From: a virus
Taxonomy: Duplodnaviria > Heunggongvirae > Uroviricota > Caudoviricetes
Virus record (IMG/VR): IMGVR_UViG_2737471841_000002
Location: 1 to 7,138 of that record
Length of the DNA stretch: 7,138 bases
Reading direction: 5' to 3' (one strand)
Shown: positions 3,559 through 7,138 of the stretch, in pieces
Layout: the number at the start of each line of letters is the position of its first letter
Position numbering within the stretch: position 1 is the stretch's first letter
Notes under the pieces: model-generated
Seen by the model: the letters and a program-made list of their open reading frames with translations, nothing else
What the model was told of the DNA's origin: nothing
Databases searched by the model: none
Made by a program: the position numbers and the translations under genes

Positions 3559-3837
3559 ATGAAGCCTAGCATAACAATCAAGCCAGCGAGAGATAATAGC
3601 AGGAACCGCCGCAGAGAGGCCAGGAAGGCAGAAAGAGCAGAGAAGGAAAACAAGAGCCGGGAGGAGAGAAAGGCAGAGATTTTGGAAAAAGGAGGATTGG
3701 CTGCCGTGAGGGGTGAAAAAGCAGCTGAATTAGCAGTAGCTCACGAAAAGACAGAGATTGACAATAATTCTGGTGGAGATGCAATGTTTAAAGTTGTCAA
3801 TCACGCCCATCAACGAAACCCCAAAAAGAAATGGTAA
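3559..3837 (+). CDS. Hypothetical highly charged basic protein (92 aa) with an arginine-rich N-terminal segment
   Basis: Track ORF; ATG two nt after the N stop, with the GAGG Shine-Dalgarno inside the N 3' end (translational coupling). Composition RDNSRNRRREARKAERAEKENKSREERKAE. Confidence 0.55.
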   Translation: MKPSITIKPARDNSRNRRREARKAERAEKENKSREERKAEILEKGGLAAVRGEKAAELAVAHEKTEIDNNSGGDAMFKVVNHAHQRNPKKKW

Positions 3838-4146: not shown

Positions 4147-4282
4147 TGGTGGCCTTTATTTTTGGCATAAACAACAGAATAAACACTGCACTGTGTATTC
4201 ATTCCAACGAGTGAATACACGGAGCAATGTCGCTCGTAACTAAACAGGAGCCGACTTGTTCTGATTATTGGAAATCTTCTTT

Positions 4283-4310
4283 GCCCTCCAGTGTGAGGGC
4301 AATTTTTTTT
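4283..4310 (+). terminator. Intrinsic terminator (tL2-like) directly upstream of the next gene's ribosome-binding site
   Basis: gccctc-cagtgt-gagggc followed by aatttttttt. Confidence 0.7.
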
Positions 4311-4322
4311 GATGGAGGATAT

Positions 4323-5291
4323 ATGAGTGAAGTAACAGATTTAGTTGTTATTGAAAAAGCAAATGCAATGACTGTATTTCAGTCTGCCGACCAGATTGAA
4401 GAAATCCTTCAAAAGGTTGAACGTGAAGTTATGTCCTTTGTGCCTGATATCACAACGGCAAAGGGCAGAAAGGAGATCGCTTCTCTGGCGTATAAAGTTG
4501 CGCAGACGAAAACATATCTCGATGGTCTTGGCAAAGACCTTGTTGCTGAACTGAAGGAAATTCCAAAGCTAATTGATGCCAACCGCAAGACAGTGCGTGA
4601 TCGACTTGATGAGCTGAAAGCCAAGGCACGCCAGCCTCTTACTGATTATGAGGATGAACAGGCACGGATTAAAGCCGAAGAAGAAGCTAAGGCAGCAGCT
4701 GAAGCTCTCGCAAAGCAAATTGAGTCTGACCATGAAATAGCGATTTTGATGGATCGCGAATTTGACCGCCAAAGAGAAGAGGCAAGACTCAAAGCGGAGC
4801 AGGAAAAGCGAGAGCATGAAGAACGCTTAAAAAGAGAAGCTGAAGAGAAAGCCAGAGCAGAAGCCGAAGCAAAGGCAAAAGCAGAAATTGAAGCAGCAGC
4901 AAGACGAGAAGCAGAGGCTAAGGCCGCAGCGGAACGTGCAGAGCGTGAACGCATTGAAGCCGAGCAACGAGCACAGCGCGAAGCAAAAGAGGCAGCAGAA
5001 CGAGCTGAAAAAGAAAAGCAGGCAGCAATTGAAGCAGAACGCAGAAAAGCACAGGAGGAGGCTGAACGAATCCGTCGCGAGGCTGAAGCAAAAGAGCAAG
5101 CCAGAATCGCAGAAGAAAAAAGAATCAAGGACGAAGAAGAGCACAGAGCAAAGGATAAAGCTCACCGGAAAGAAGTAAATAACAAAATACTTGCTGACCT
5201 TATCAAGGTTGGCGCATCAGAAGATGTTGCTAAAAATATCATAACAGCCATCGTAAAAGGCGAAGTATTCGCAACAAAAATAACCTACTAA
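4323..5291 (+). CDS. Hypothetical protein (322 aa): N-terminal domain, ~180-aa E/A/K/R-rich helical region, short C-terminal domain
   Basis: Track ORF 4227..5291; internal ATG at 4323 is preceded by GGAGG and lies downstream of the terminator at 4283-4310, so 4323 is the likely start. The central region is a degenerate charged repeat (EAEAKAKAEIEAAARREAEAKAAAERAERERIEAEQRAQREAKEAAERAEKEK). Confidence 0.7.
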   Translation: MSEVTDLVVIEKANAMTVFQSADQIEEILQKVEREVMSFVPDITTAKGRKEIASLAYKVAQTKTYLDGLGKDLVAELKEIPKLIDANRKTVRDRLDELKAKARQPLTDYEDEQARIKAEEEAKAAAEALAKQIESDHEIAILMDREFDRQREEARLKAEQEKREHEERLKREAEEKARAEAEAKAKAEIEAAARREAEAKAAAERAERERIEAEQRAQREAKEAAERAEKEKQAAIEAERRKAQEEAERIRREAEAKEQARIAEEKRIKDEEEHRAKDKAHRKEVNNKILADLIKVGASEDVAKNIITAIVKGEVFATKITY

Positions 5292-5315
5292 TAAAACCAA
5301 CATAAGGAACCACCC

Positions 5316-5462
5316 ATGATTTACGCAATCGCGGGAGGCGCTCGCATGGGTGCCTTCCAACTAAATGAATCTTTACTTGAACGAATCACCCGTAAATTAC
5401 GTGACGGATGGAAACGACTCATCGACGTACTTAATCAGCCAGGAGTTCCAAAAAATGGATAA
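5316..5462 (+). CDS. cIII: CIII-like protein (48 aa), the lambda FtsH inhibitor that stabilises CII
   Basis: Hand translation MIYAIAGGARMGAFQLNESLLERITRKLRDGWKRLIDVLNQPGVPKNG; its core matches lambda CIII as recalled (ESLLERITRKLRDGWKRLIDILNQPGVPKNG). AAGGA Shine-Dalgarno upstream. Below the ORF-track length cutoff. Confidence 0.7.
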   Translation: MIYAIAGGARMGAFQLNESLLERITRKLRDGWKRLIDVLNQPGVPKNG

Positions 5463-5568
5463 AACACTTATGGCTATTCAGACTAAATTCACTATCGCCA
5501 CTTTTATTGGCGATGAAAAGATGTTTCGTGAGGCCGTCGAAGCCTACAGAAAATGGAGGTCTAAATGA
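5455..5568 (+). CDS. kil: Kil-like host cell-division inhibitor (37 aa)
   Basis: Internal ATG of track ORF 5365..5568, preceded by AGGAG; MDKTLMAIQTKFTIATFIGDEKMFREAVEAYRKW resembles the lambda Kil N-terminus as recalled. Overlaps the cIII 3' end by 8 nt. Confidence 0.6.
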   Translation: MDKTLMAIQTKFTIATFIGDEKMFREAVEAYRKWRSK

Positions 5569-5753
5569 TTCCGGTAGAGCTGGCGAAAACTCCAGAGTTA
5601 AGTCGATTAAAAAGAGAATATCACATTGCTGAGGCTCGTTACTGGCGTAAAGCGGGAGATAAATCAAAGAAACAACTTTGTTTATGGCAAGCACAAAGAG
5701 AGCGCATGAATGAGCGCGAATTTCTTTCCTCCCCATCCGAATTACCATTCTGA
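5565..5753 (+). CDS. Hypothetical protein (62 aa) in the position lambda uses for gam
   Basis: Track ORF; start overlaps the kil stop (ATGA). No resemblance to lambda Gam as recalled. Confidence 0.45.
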   Translation: MIPVELAKTPELSRLKREYHIAEARYWRKAGDKSKKQLCLWQAQRERMNEREFLSSPSELPF

Positions 5754-5761
5754 GGTGAATT

Positions 5762-6469
5762 ATGGATTTGAATAAATTCGATGAGCCATTCAGCCCTGAA
5801 GATATCGAATGGCGAATACAGCAAAGCGGTAAAACACGCGATGGAAAAGTGTGGGCTATGGTGCTGGCTTATGTCACGAACAGGGCAATCATGAAACGCC
5901 TGGACGATGTTTGCGGCAAAGCAGGATGGCGCAATGAATACCGCGATATTCCCAACAACGGAGGCGTTGAATGCGGCATATCAATCAGGATTGATTCCGA
6001 ATGGGTAACCAAATGGGATGCTGCTGAAAACACGCAGGTAGAAGCCGTCAAAGGTGGTCGTTCAGGTGCAATGAAGCGTGCTGCCGTTCAGTGGGGAATC
6101 GGTCGGTATCTGTATAACCTTGAGGAAGGTTTCGCACAAACATCTCTCGATAAAAAGCAGGGGTGGCACAGGGCAAAACTGAAGGATGGAACAGGATTTT
6201 ACTGGCTCCCTCCATCGCTGCCGGGATGGGCAATCCCAGCATCAGATAACAAACCATCACCAGAAAATACCAACCAGAAATCTCCATCGGTTGACTGCGA
6301 ACAAATCCTGAAAGACTTCAGCGATTATGCGTCAACAGAAACTGACAAGAAAAAACTCATCGAGCGTTATCAGCGTGACTGGCAATTAATGGCTGGCAAC
6401 GAGGAGGCGCAGGCTAAATGCGTTCAGGTAATGAACATCAGAGTTAACGAACTAAAACAGGCGGCATAA
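5762..6469 (+). CDS. Rad52-like single-strand annealing protein (phage recombinase, 235 aa)
   Basis: Track ORF; GAGGTG Shine-Dalgarno. The segment EAVKGGRSGAMKRAAVQWGIGRYLY parallels the conserved Rad52 motif (EAVTDGLKRALRSFGNALG); gene is immediately followed by ssb. Confidence 0.75.
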   Translation: MDLNKFDEPFSPEDIEWRIQQSGKTRDGKVWAMVLAYVTNRAIMKRLDDVCGKAGWRNEYRDIPNNGGVECGISIRIDSEWVTKWDAAENTQVEAVKGGRSGAMKRAAVQWGIGRYLYNLEEGFAQTSLDKKQGWHRAKLKDGTGFYWLPPSLPGWAIPASDNKPSPENTNQKSPSVDCEQILKDFSDYASTETDKKKLIERYQRDWQLMAGNEEAQAKCVQVMNIRVNELKQAA

Positions 6470-6943
6470 ATGGCAAGCAGAGGCGTAAATAAGGTGATCA
6501 TTATTGGTCGCCTTGGGCATGATCCAGAAATCAGATATTCACCATCAGGAACGGCATTTGCAAACCTTACCGTTGCTACGTCAGAACAATGGCGTGATAA
6601 GAAAACTGGAGAGCAAAAGGAGCAGACGGAGTGGCACCGCGTGGTAATGAGCGGGAAACTGGCAGAAATTGCCAGCGAATATCTGCGAAAAGGCTCTGAT
6701 GTTTATCTTGAAGGCAAATTGCGGACAAGAAAATGGCAGGATCAAAGTGGACAGGATCGGTTCACTACCGAAGTCATCGTGGGCGTTGGTGGAACCATGC
6801 AAATGCTTGGTGGCAAGCAAGGAGGCAATGAACAGTCTTCACCTCAGCGAAATAACGGTCATCAACAAAGACAGCAACCTCAGCAGCATGGAAATCACAG
6901 CGAACCACCTATGAACTTCGACGATTCGGATATTCCGTTCTAG
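6470..6943 (+). CDS. ssb: Single-stranded DNA-binding protein (157 aa)
   Basis: Track ORF resembles E. coli SSB along its OB-fold region ([16 protein letters not shown]...TEWHRVV...[11 protein letters not shown]) as recalled, with a Gly/Gln-rich linker and acidic tail ending DDSDIPF. Start ATG abuts the upstream stop (TAAATG). Confidence 0.95.
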
Positions 6944-6952
6944 GAGCTGAAT

Positions 6953-7138
6953 ATGAAAATCTGCTCAAGATGCCATCAACAGAAGGAAGAAAGGGACTTT
7001 CAAATCAGAAGAGCATCCAGAGATGGATTAACTGCCGCTTGCCGGGCTTGCCTGGCTGAATATGACAAAGAGCGCGCGGGATTGCCACATCGAGTATCAG
7101 CAAGGAGAGAATATCAATCATCGGAACGCGGCAGAGAA
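6953..7138 (+). CDS. Hypothetical Cys-rich protein, N-terminal 62 codons only; runs off the window end
   Basis: ATG at 6953 preceded by AGGAG with a 6-nt spacer; hand translation MKICSRCHQQKEERDFQIRRASRDGLTAACRACLAEYDKERAGL... has two CxxC-like pairs (C4, C7, C30, C33). Confidence 0.45.
   Translation, partial: MKICSRCHQQKEERDFQIRRASRDGLTAACRACLAEYDKERAGLPHRVSARREYQSSERGRE

Follow-up and report, generated by a model that had tools for sequence, protein, structure and literature searches.

In phage λ, the early-left operon continues after cIII and kil with gam, bet, and exo (Red), whose task is end resection and annealing. In the phage DNA analyzed here, a stretch of 7,138 nt (the window), genes for the same task occupy the same operon position, namely, a 62-aa open reading frame (ORF), a Rad52-family annealase gene, and a phage SSB gene, which raises the questions of how DNA ends are processed and what the small ORF contributes. 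The initial annotation had drawn this contrast with λ, and correctly so: all three genes lie after kil at the coordinates it gave, and no homologue of Gam, Bet, or Exo was found between kil and the annealase gene or among the window ORFs scanned (Pfam, PHROG).

Gene content and layout of the interval

The interval contains the following genes.

5316..5462, + strand: cIII, FtsH-inhibiting lysogeny factor and upstream edge of the cluster (Pfam Lambda_CIII, PF02061, E 1.9e-24); overlaps the kil start
5455..5568, + strand: kil, λ-type division inhibitor, 37-aa form (Pfam Lambda_Kil, PF06301, E 4e-21)
5565..5753, + strand: hkaM-family gene, 62 aa (phrog_1723, E 1.6e-33 across 58/58 profile positions)
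5762..6469, + strand: single-strand annealing protein, 235 aa (Pfam Rad52_Rad22, PF04098, E 7.2e-26)
6470..6943, + strand: bacterial-type SSB, phage-encoded, 157 aa (Pfam SSB, E 2.7e-38; TIGR00621, 179 bits, cut-off 54)
6953..7138, + strand: 5' part of an HNH-type endonuclease gene, 62 codons, frame open to the window end

The genes are tightly packed in the order cIII-kil-hkaM-annealase-SSB-HNH in the pL operon, and between 5200 and 7138 we found no promoter-like sites on either strand and no terminator-like sites on the + strand. The Lambda_Kil match covers residues 32-62 of a 67-aa ORF that opens at 5365. This longer form is probably unused; Bas106, HK620, and E. coli 13C1065T all have kil annotated at 114 nt. 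The ATG of the 62-aa ORF overlaps the kil stop codon as ATGA, with a GGAGG Shine-Dalgarno sequence 5 nt upstream, and its own stop codon sits within the Shine-Dalgarno sequence of the annealase gene (TGAGGTGA). The SSB start abuts the annealase stop (TAA followed directly by ATG), and the HNH gene begins 9 nt past SSB. This last gene had been missed by the initial annotation. Its 62 codons from 6953 encode residues 1-62 of Bas106_0032 (159 aa, an Sf6 gp26 homologue) without a difference, and an HNH homologue at another HkaM locus, L098, matches phrog_2340, "endonuclease" (E 5.5e-46). Since the window end falls 186 nt inside the HNH gene, the recombination module is incomplete in the window.

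The annealase belongs to the Rad52/Rad22 superfamily by its N-terminal annealing domain, which scores above the Pfam gathering threshold (91.4 bits, cut-off 20.3, residues 4-136), with annealing activity itself predicted. The protein also matches phrog_1097 (E 6.5e-130), and its C-terminal 79 residues share 63% identity with P22 Erf (E 2e-30). Its architecture is thus a Rad52/Rad22-type core (4-136) fused to a P22-Erf-type C-terminal domain (about 179-235), the latter predicted to be a three-helix bundle (pLDDT >90); a fold search with this domain was uninformative. An Erf "domain swap" of this kind has been described before (PMC2629481).

A probable Abc2-type module continuing past the window

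We consider the interval likely to be the first, promoter-proximal part of a lambdoid recombination module of the ES18/Sf6 ("Abc2") type, carried in an N-antiterminated pL operon, with the product of the 62-aa ORF, HkaM, as a proposed accessory factor of the annealase. Abc2 is the P22 protein that re-programs host RecBCD. The module features seen in the window are an annealase gene in an early-left operon, a contiguous gene for a bacterial-type SSB (SSB-1), and a contiguous nuclease gene, of which only the first 62 HNH codons are present. A module class combining anti-RecBCD, SSB, nuclease, and SAP functions has been published as the "ES18" type, found in 25/325 phages (PMC12315714, Genome Res 2025). 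The module is therefore already known, the window adding a further mosaic example to a Rec-module type that has been catalogued.

The window shares genes, gene order, and 98% DNA identity with Sf6 and Bas106 (positions 5300-7138 in the Bas106 comparison), including the succession of small ORF, Rad52-type SAP with Erf C-terminal domain, SSB-1, and HNH at the same pL location after cIII-kil. To the left, the immunity region differs from Sf6 and Bas106 in its mosaic make-up (λ/HK97-like cI, P63C protein), and the best-matching public phage or E. coli records reach at most 66% coverage of the window. The order in Bas106 is hkaM-annealase-SSB-HNH-DnaQ exonuclease-Abc2, the DnaQ-like protein being a 3'-5' exonuclease, and Sf6 has the same order minus DnaQ; the full ES18/Sf6-type module thus has Abc2 with or without a DnaQ nuclease, whereas the window covers the first part only. 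Where relatives offer enough sequence, Abc2 lies 0.5-1.1 kb past the point matching the window end, as seen in 79 of 80 IMG/VR loci and in Bas106, Sf6, HK620, HK97, and E. coli 13C1065T. Because relatives carry Abc2 there, we infer that it probably lies 0.5-1.1 kb beyond 7138 in the window's phage as well.

According to the literature, phages that encode Abc2 have no exonuclease of their own, as the co-opted RecBCD takes over that activity (PMC9836394). Judging from the sequence comparisons, the missing exonuclease and Gam is a window-edge effect combined with predicted hijacking of RecBCD via Abc2. The initial annotation was right that neither gene lies in the window, but the oddity that it implied does not follow, as relatives continue to Abc2, sometimes via a DnaQ-like exonuclease. 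It had also reasoned that an exonuclease just downstream would make the module conventional, which is partly the case in the closest relative, Bas106, where HNH and DnaQ-like 3'-5' exonuclease genes come after SSB.

Comparison with characterized systems places this module type among those that hijack RecBCD, whereas λ blocks RecBCD with Gam and brings Exo; a C-terminal adaptor domain is nevertheless present in the λ annealase also. The P22 cluster kil-arf-erf-abc1-abc2 follows the same logic as predicted for the window module, with no phage exonuclease and with RecBCD re-programmed by Abc2. The two annealases share the C-terminal domain described above, and both clusters have a small accessory ORF between kil and the annealase gene. 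They differ in the annealing core (ERF in P22, Rad52_Rad22 here), in the SSB and HNH genes that stand where P22 has Abc1, in kil, which in the window is of the λ type, unlike that of P22, and in the small ORF (acidic Arf of 47 aa in P22, basic HkaM of 62 aa here). Homology between HkaM and Arf was rejected, in that the sequences are unrelated, their charges are opposite (pI 4.05 for Arf versus 9.58), and they belong to separate families (phrog_2445 versus phrog_1723); an earlier study likewise reported no Arf-HkaM homology (PMC5928155). Nor do Arf and HkaM simply replace each other, since Sf6 has an HkaM homologue in addition to an acidic, Arf-like ORF. In HK620 (hkaM-sak4-ssb-abc2; Hutinet et al. 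2018, PMC5928155), the order kil-hkaM-annealase-SSB-Abc2 is as here, and the SSB tail, which recruits the annealase, ends in PF, as does that of the window SSB (DSDIPF). However, the HK620 annealase is a RecA-like Sak4 lacking the Erf C-terminal domain, unlike the window annealase, and its SSB is of the non-canonical DUF669 type, whereas the window SSB is bacterial-type.

The 62-aa ORF and its family

The 62-aa ORF was shown by sequence comparison to belong to the HkaM family (phrog_1723), and thus to be a real, conserved protein-coding gene that consistently accompanies annealase genes on their 5' side. It is 98% identical to HkaM of HK620, which received its name in 2018, when it was described as an orphan without known function (PMC5928155). 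Of the homology and structure searches that the initial annotation had suggested, PHROG identified the family, while searches of Pfam, NCBIfam, and PDB gave no match, and Foldseek comparison of the predicted structure with PDB returned generic helical hairpins only, all at E > 4. AF2 predicts two helices (residues 10-30 and 33-49) forming a hairpin, with block-mean pLDDT values of 87-94 over residues 11-40 and 83 over 41-50 in a prediction that drew on only 8 sequences, followed by a low-confidence tail (50-62) predicted to be disordered.

Family length is constant at 56-62 aa, and its members are uniformly basic (pI 9.05-10.4; the window protein has a pI of 9.58 and a net charge of +4). Seven residues (S13, A24, R28, G31, E46, P61, and F62) are invariant among 16 sequences reaching down to 34% identity, and the codons for P61 and F62 vary synonymously (CCA/CCG/CCT and TTC/TTT) while the residues do not. 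Six-frame translation of 15 loci gave 829 ORFs of 40 aa or more, and a Pro-Phe end was found in 25 of them, among which are 13 HkaM homologues and 11 SSBs. The residues before this end include acidic ones, as is typical of SSB tips, in close homologues (SELPF, DDLPF) but not in several distant ones (GPCPF, GPAPF, GNCPF), and the residue immediately preceding Pro-Phe is not conserved among distant homologues.

Genomic context ties HkaM to the annealase gene. The gap between the two genes is 8 nt in the window and 7-11 nt across all other contexts examined, and homologues as distant as about 34% identity are without exception placed directly 5' of an annealase gene, with kil adjacent or not. This adjacency holds in at least 12 sequence-divergent contexts with varying upstream neighbors and with three annealase cores: ERF (loci L011, L098, L099, L100, and L102, and HK97), Rad52 (the window, locus L012, phage L, and Sf6), and AAA_24/Sak4 (HK620 and locus L097). 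Wherever distant HkaM homologues occur, an Erf-type C-terminal domain is fused to the ERF, Rad52, or AAA_24 core, which shows, within these sequences, that HkaM co-varies with this domain.

In IMG/VR, 80 loci carry an HkaM of 97-100% identity, and all of them follow the arrangement kil-hkaM, then either Rad52-like plus SSB or Sak4 plus SSB_HK620, then optionally HNH/DnaQ, and then Abc2, the last gene being present in 79 of them; Gam, Bet, and Exo are absent from all 80. Abc2 also occurs alongside the HkaM homologues of HK97, L011, and L098. A strict link between HkaM and Abc2 is unsupported for distant homologues, however, as the Abc2 HMM recognized no Abc2 beside those of L012, L097, and L100.

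Candidate roles of HkaM

In the model drawn from the P22 and HK620 literature, a phage without a 5'-3' exonuclease and without Gam would use Abc2, bound to RecC, to re-program host RecBCD to resect phage DNA ends, and the resulting single-stranded DNA (ssDNA) would be annealed by the phage annealase with help from the phage SSB. Here, the annealase would act as a Rad52-type core with an Erf-type C-terminal adaptor domain. For HkaM, we infer an accessory role at the annealase/SSB step in preference to nuclease inhibition. The basic hairpin of HkaM may bind nucleic acid or a partner protein, and its flexible tail, with a Pro-Phe-COOH end, may dock into a pocket that reads SSB C-terminal tails, either in the annealase C-terminal domain or in host SSB-interacting proteins. 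Against this role stand the HK620 recombineering result given below and the variable residues before Pro-Phe in distant homologues.

A more specific version of this role, which we put forward tentatively and regard as rather doubtful, is that HkaM is a miniature SSB-tail mimic, in which a basic two-helix core, binding DNA or a partner, carries a flexible Pro-Phe-COOH tail that plugs into the pocket for the SSB C terminus and thereby couples the annealase to, or shields, ssDNA from Abc2-modified RecBCD. Candidate targets would be the annealase, through its Erf-type three-helix C-terminal domain, or host enzymes that interact with SSB, such as ExoI, RecJ, RecQ, or PriA. Precedents include binding of an SSB C-terminal 9-mer by the Redβ C-terminal domain (PMC6393309) and the need of Sak4 for the NDYPPF tail of its cognate SSB (PMC5928155). 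The companionship of HkaM with three annealase folds, its SSB-like Pro-Phe end, and its co-variation with the Erf domain together make this a concrete hypothesis, and the unexplained step that it addresses is annealase loading onto RecBCD-Abc2 products. If true, a mimic of this kind would found a new class of small accessory proteins in recombination and could be the adaptor missing from the Abc2 hijack model. These features of HkaM may also matter for porting annealase/SSB pairs in recombineering.

HkaM could instead be a host-takeover or anti-defense factor unconnected with recombination that hitch-hikes at a frequent mosaic boundary. In oligonucleotide recombineering, the whole HK620 module including hkaM performed the same as sak4 plus ssb alone (PMC5928155), so HkaM neither stimulates nor competes in that assay, as such a factor would lead one to expect. 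In addition, the mosaic boundary between Sf6 and the window falls exactly at the HkaM 3' end, and small genes of this kind abound in early-left operons. A passenger of this sort is nonetheless unlikely given the adjacency to three annealase cores under changing upstream genes, the translational coupling of HkaM to the annealase gene, and the PF tail common to HkaM and the module SSBs.

Very unlikely is the proposal that hkaM is only a translated leader delivering ribosomes to the annealase start, its peptide having no function. The stop codon within the annealase Shine-Dalgarno sequence and the narrow spacing kept in every lineage would suit such a leader. A pure leader would be expected to drift freely, however, and HkaM retains its protein sequence to 34% identity, its seven invariant residues, the synonymous pattern at P61/F62, its length, and, in the AF2 prediction from 8 sequences, a confidently folded core.

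We also weighed whether HkaM is a truncated relative of Abc2 acting via peptidyl-prolyl isomerase PpiB, the partner of Abc2 helix 2/Pro68. HkaM residues 39-62 align with Abc2 49-69, both ending in PF (10/24 identities, pairwise BLASTP E 0.002); the Abc2 proline in this alignment is P68, which lies within the PpiB active site (PMC9836394), and a natural ORF fuses HkaM 1-39 to Abc2 50-97 exactly at the alignment junction. Against this, profile-profile comparison of the two families (hhalign) gave a probability of 0.1% over 6 aligned columns, HkaM homologues stay at E > 2 against the Abc2 HMM, other Abc2 proteins do not retain the CIW motif, the DNA-level matches are partly out of frame, and the fusion ORF is explained by a microhomology deletion. 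With no Pfam match either, homology of HkaM to Abc2 (PF11043) was rejected at the profile level, leaving this derivation highly improbable.

Equally improbable is the role raised by the initial annotation, a small anti-nuclease replacing Gam as RecBCD inhibitor and functionally coupled to kil. In its favor are the λ gam position of the ORF relative to kil, the overlap of its start with the kil stop, and the frequency of host-nuclease inhibitors among small phage proteins. Pfam, PHROG, and PDB searches found no similarity to Gam, and the basic charge of HkaM sets it apart from acidic Gam, a DNA mimic, and from Arf, a suspected one; by these measures HkaM does not resemble Gam-like, DNA-mimic inhibitors of RecBCD. 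In close E. coli/Salmonella lineages, moreover, HkaM sits with a dedicated anti-RecBCD gene, Abc2, and a second RecBCD blocker would thus be unneeded. The functional link to kil fails as well, since distant homologues keep their place beside the annealase gene with kil elsewhere or absent.

HkaM, for which we prefer the accessory role at the annealase/SSB step, is present in 229 of 5426 complete E. coli genomes (about 4%), and a scan of species-representative genomes added only 2 further loci. It occurs in the model phages HK620, HK97, Sf6, ES18, ε34, and L, and is still annotated as "hypothetical" or, misleadingly, as "recombinase."

The recombination region at the window end

The window comes from a lambdoid phage and covers its immunity and early-left region; the pL operon is on the + strand. 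The genes are, in order:

cII and cro, − strand, first in the window
λ-like cI, next in order
1829-2797, P63C-domain gene directly after cI (PF10546, E 2.7e-22)
N
3559-3837, arginine-rich Nun-like ORF of 92 aa directly after N (phrog_5632, "Nun-like transcription termination factor", E 1.5e-29)
83-aa ORF
4227-5291, TolA-like gene, encoding a 354-aa E/K/A-rich coiled coil (phrog_1376; Sf6 gp33; PGAP name "TolA")
cIII, clear Pfam match
kil, clear Pfam match
5565-5753, hkaM, 62-aa ORF between kil and the annealase gene (phrog_1723, E 1.6e-33)
5762-6469, annealase, 235 aa (Pfam Rad52_Rad22, E 7.2e-26, residues 4-136)
SSB, 157 aa, with the C-terminal end DSDIPF (Pfam SSB, E 2.7e-38)
6953 to the window end, 5' part of an HNH-type endonuclease gene, with 62 open codons in a frame that runs off the end

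The P63C-domain protein occupies the λ rexAB position and is a candidate prophage-expressed exclusion or defense gene. The annealase, SSB, and 62-aa ORF lie where the initial annotation had put them, and Pfam confirmed Rad52_Rad22, SSB, kil, and cIII. The genes from kil onward are spaced as closely as in a single translational unit: the hkaM start overlaps the kil stop in ATGA, with GGAGG upstream; hkaM is translationally coupled to the annealase gene, whose Shine-Dalgarno sequence contains the hkaM stop (TGAGGTGAattATG); the SSB start directly follows the annealase stop; and 9 nt separate the SSB end from the next gene start. Neither strand showed a promoter-like site within 5200-7138, nor did the + strand show a terminator-like one.

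The absence of an exonuclease and of Gam, which had been singled out as unusual, is correct as observed, but the oddity is a window-edge effect, since relatives run on to Abc2; the module is cut, not incomplete. The 62 codons from 6953 encode the exact N-terminal sequence of a 159-aa HNH-type endonuclease (Sf6 gp26 family) from phage Bas106, which matches window 5300-7138 at 98.3% identity. Whether an exonuclease follows depends on the relative: in Bas106, the HNH gene precedes a DnaQ/Rv2179c-like 3'-5' exonuclease (PF16473, E 2.9e-73) and then Abc2 (PF11043, E 2.4e-61), and in Sf6 the order is HNH, then Abc2. An E. coli 13C1065T prophage with a 100% identical small ORF has the SSB, a gap, and then a "phage anti-RecBCD protein".

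We typed by tblastn the neighbors of hkaM in 80 IMG/VR loci, each with a small ORF at 97-100% identity to that of the window. The order (cIII)-kil-small ORF-annealase was common to all, followed by a detected SSB in all but one, and Abc2 was reached in 79 of 80; in the remaining locus, kil-HkaM-Sak4 stood alone, both SSB and Abc2 being undetected. A Rad52-like annealase and SSB pair was present in 14 loci (6 of these with the HNH gene and 4 with the DnaQ exonuclease), an HK620-type Sak4 and SSB pair in 65, and both pairs in 1. This typing found λ Gam, Bet, and Exo in none of the 80. Because no public phage or E. coli record spans the whole window (best coverage, 66%), we infer from these relatives that an Abc2-type continuation lies downstream of 7138.

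We identify the region as the first part of an Abc2-type (ES18/Sf6) recombination module, which is known and not novel. A 2025 survey of 325 lambdoid phages sorted Rec modules by anti-RecBCD, SSB, nuclease, and strand-annealing protein, assigned all four functions to the "ES18" type (25 phages), named SSB-1 for Sf6 and ES18, and included HNH and DnaQ genes in a module when they are tightly packed (PMC12315714). Abc2 works through host RecBCD, which directly explains the lack of exonuclease and Gam; RecC-bound Abc2 has been proposed to make the phage annealase, in place of RecA, the protein that is loaded (PMC9836394).

HkaM and its annealase partners

The small ORF encodes HkaM, an orphan protein named previously; it is 98% identical to HK620 HkaM. 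Homology searches matched phrog_1723 and HkaM, with no relatives in Pfam, NCBIfam, or PDB. HkaM or a ~60-70%-identical relative (ST64T orf66, phage L, ES18 gp50, ε34 gp37) is encoded in 107 phage records, and Sf6 gp29 and HK97 gp42 are more distant members (33% identity). HkaM occurs in 229 of 5426 complete E. coli genomes, annotated there as hypothetical, as PGAP annotates the window ORF. A profile search of 1.84 billion representative proteins returned only 21 matches, the distant ones 34-50% identical. The PHROG label "recombinase" is misleading; it appears to be a positional transfer and is not evidence, since the whole HK620 module including hkaM was no better in oligonucleotide recombineering than sak4+ssb alone (PMC5928155). 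The same PHROG-derived label sits on Sf6 gp29 and gp30, with P22 arf as its apparent positional source. P22 Arf itself (47 aa, pI 4.05, phrog_2445) is unrelated to HkaM.

We placed six distant HkaM matches on contigs and examined HK97, Sf6, phage L, and two species-representative genomes alongside them. Wherever enough sequence was available, hkaM lay 7-11 nt upstream of an annealase gene, and the annealases belong to three different folds:

ERF core: comparison loci L011, L098, L099, L100/L101, and L102/L103; HK97
Rad52_Rad22 core: window, locus L012, phage L, Sf6
AAA_24/Sak4 core: HK620 type, L097 (Phytobacter ursingii prophage)

The upstream neighbor varied (kil, a DUF551 protein, the TolA-like phrog_1376 protein, or 41-aa or 49-aa ORFs), so the constant partner of hkaM is the annealase gene, not kil. 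Abc2 followed in L011, L098, and L096 and was not recognizable in L012, L097, and L100.

The last 79 residues of the window annealase are 63% identical to P22 Erf (E 2e-30), and its core is Rad52_Rad22, not ERF; "Erf domain swaps" of such annealases were described with the ε34 genome (PMC2629481). This C-terminal domain, a predicted three-helix bundle (AF2, pLDDT >90), is common to ERF, Rad52, and L097 AAA_24 annealases (L097 versus L100, 51% identity over 49 residues, E 2e-12); only HK620-type Sak4 lacked it among the HkaM-linked annealases compared. One domain is thus fused to three unrelated cores, Rad52_Rad22, ERF, and AAA_24/Sak4-type, and the literature consulted speaks of the Rad52/ERF swap alone. 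Annealases carrying it, each with hkaM just upstream, are:

window 5762-6469
L097 6194-7063
L100 5180-5791
L098 5189-5821

Since hkaM precedes each core type, the core is a swappable piece flanked by HkaM and the C-terminal domain.

Several smaller features were seen around hkaM. In L098 and L012, the hkaM homologue follows the TolA-like gene with no gene between; in L097, one 62-aa ORF stands between the two. The TolA-like gene may belong to the same functional block. The intervening 62-aa ORF (L097 5801-5989, ending ...EFTNCPF) may be a diverged tandem paralogue of HkaM. Sf6 (L002) has two overlapping small ORFs before the annealase (5282-5440 and 5361-5531): gp30, which is acidic (phrog_2123) and shares SDEEFI with P22 Arf, and the HkaM homologue gp29, so Arf-like and HkaM-like genes co-exist there and are not alternatives. 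HK97 (L104) gp42, with ORFs 4292-4543/4292-4468 both labeled "recombinase", ends in FLGPCPF.

Possible roles of HkaM

HkaM is a real protein-coding gene under selection. AF2 modeling with 8 sequences predicted helices at residues 10-30 and 33-49 (block-mean pLDDT of 87-94 for residues 11-40 and 83 for 41-50), followed by a low-confidence tail. Across 16 sequences down to 34% identity, seven residues are invariant: S13, A24, R28, G31 at the hairpin turn, E46, and the C-terminal pair P61 and F62. The family motif is ER-x-N-x-x-x-F-L-G-x-x-P-F-COOH. The terminal codons vary (Pro CCA/CCG/CCT, Phe TTC/TTT), which argues that the protein is under selection, as opposed to the RNA near the annealase ribosome-binding site. 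The family is basic throughout (pI 9.05-10.4), and its invariant Pro-Phe end follows a disordered segment. Among 829 six-frame ORFs of at least 40 aa from 15 loci, 25 end in Pro-Phe: 13 HkaM homologues, 11 module SSBs (…DSDIPF, …ERIPF, …DDSIPF, …DYPPF), and the extra L097 ORF upstream of HkaM.

The C-terminal Pro-Phe tip of SSBs is a handle for recruiting partner proteins. The C-terminal three-helix domain of Redβ binds the SSB C-terminal 9-mer and λ Exo (PMC6393309), and Sak4 binding to SSB-coated ssDNA requires the SSB NDYPPF tail (PMC5928155). The only forward-looking element of this analysis is a hypothesis on the conserved SSB-like terminus of HkaM and its partnership with swappable-core, constant-tail annealases. 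We give about an even chance to the broader statement that HkaM is an accessory factor of the annealase/SSB step. A more specific model, which we consider rather unlikely, is that the HkaM tail would serve as an SSB-tail-like ligand. Its target would be either the annealase, with the Erf-type C-terminal domain as the most economical site, or host SSB-interacting enzymes, and HkaM would thereby help the step between RecBCD-Abc2 resection and annealing. Three observations speak against this model: distant homologues do not retain the acidic residues that true SSB tips carry, fold searches gave no specific match, and hkaM made no difference in oligonucleotide recombineering, an assay that bypasses the dsDNA-end step.

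Alternatively, HkaM could be a hitch-hiking host-takeover gene, which would leave its constant annealase adjacency and coupling unexplained. Two findings hint at kinship with Abc2, a 24-residue match that stops at Abc2 Pro68 (the PpiB-bound proline) and a natural in-frame HkaM(1-39)::Abc2(50-97) fusion in a prophage that has lost its annealase and SSB, but this kinship fails at the profile level, and deletion at an 11-nt hkaM/abc2 microhomology (TTGTNTATGGC) adequately explains the fusion. A pure leader peptide conflicts with the conserved sequence and predicted fold. The initial suggestion of a Gam-like anti-nuclease is at odds with the basic charge, the co-occurrence with Abc2, and the absent kil linkage.

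The HkaM::Abc2 fusion lies at 5001-5264 of L009 (Logan contig DRR480387_1501), where the annealase, SSB, and HNH genes are deleted and the junction falls within the microhomology. A second natural fusion joins HkaM(1-30) to Sak4 (P0019).
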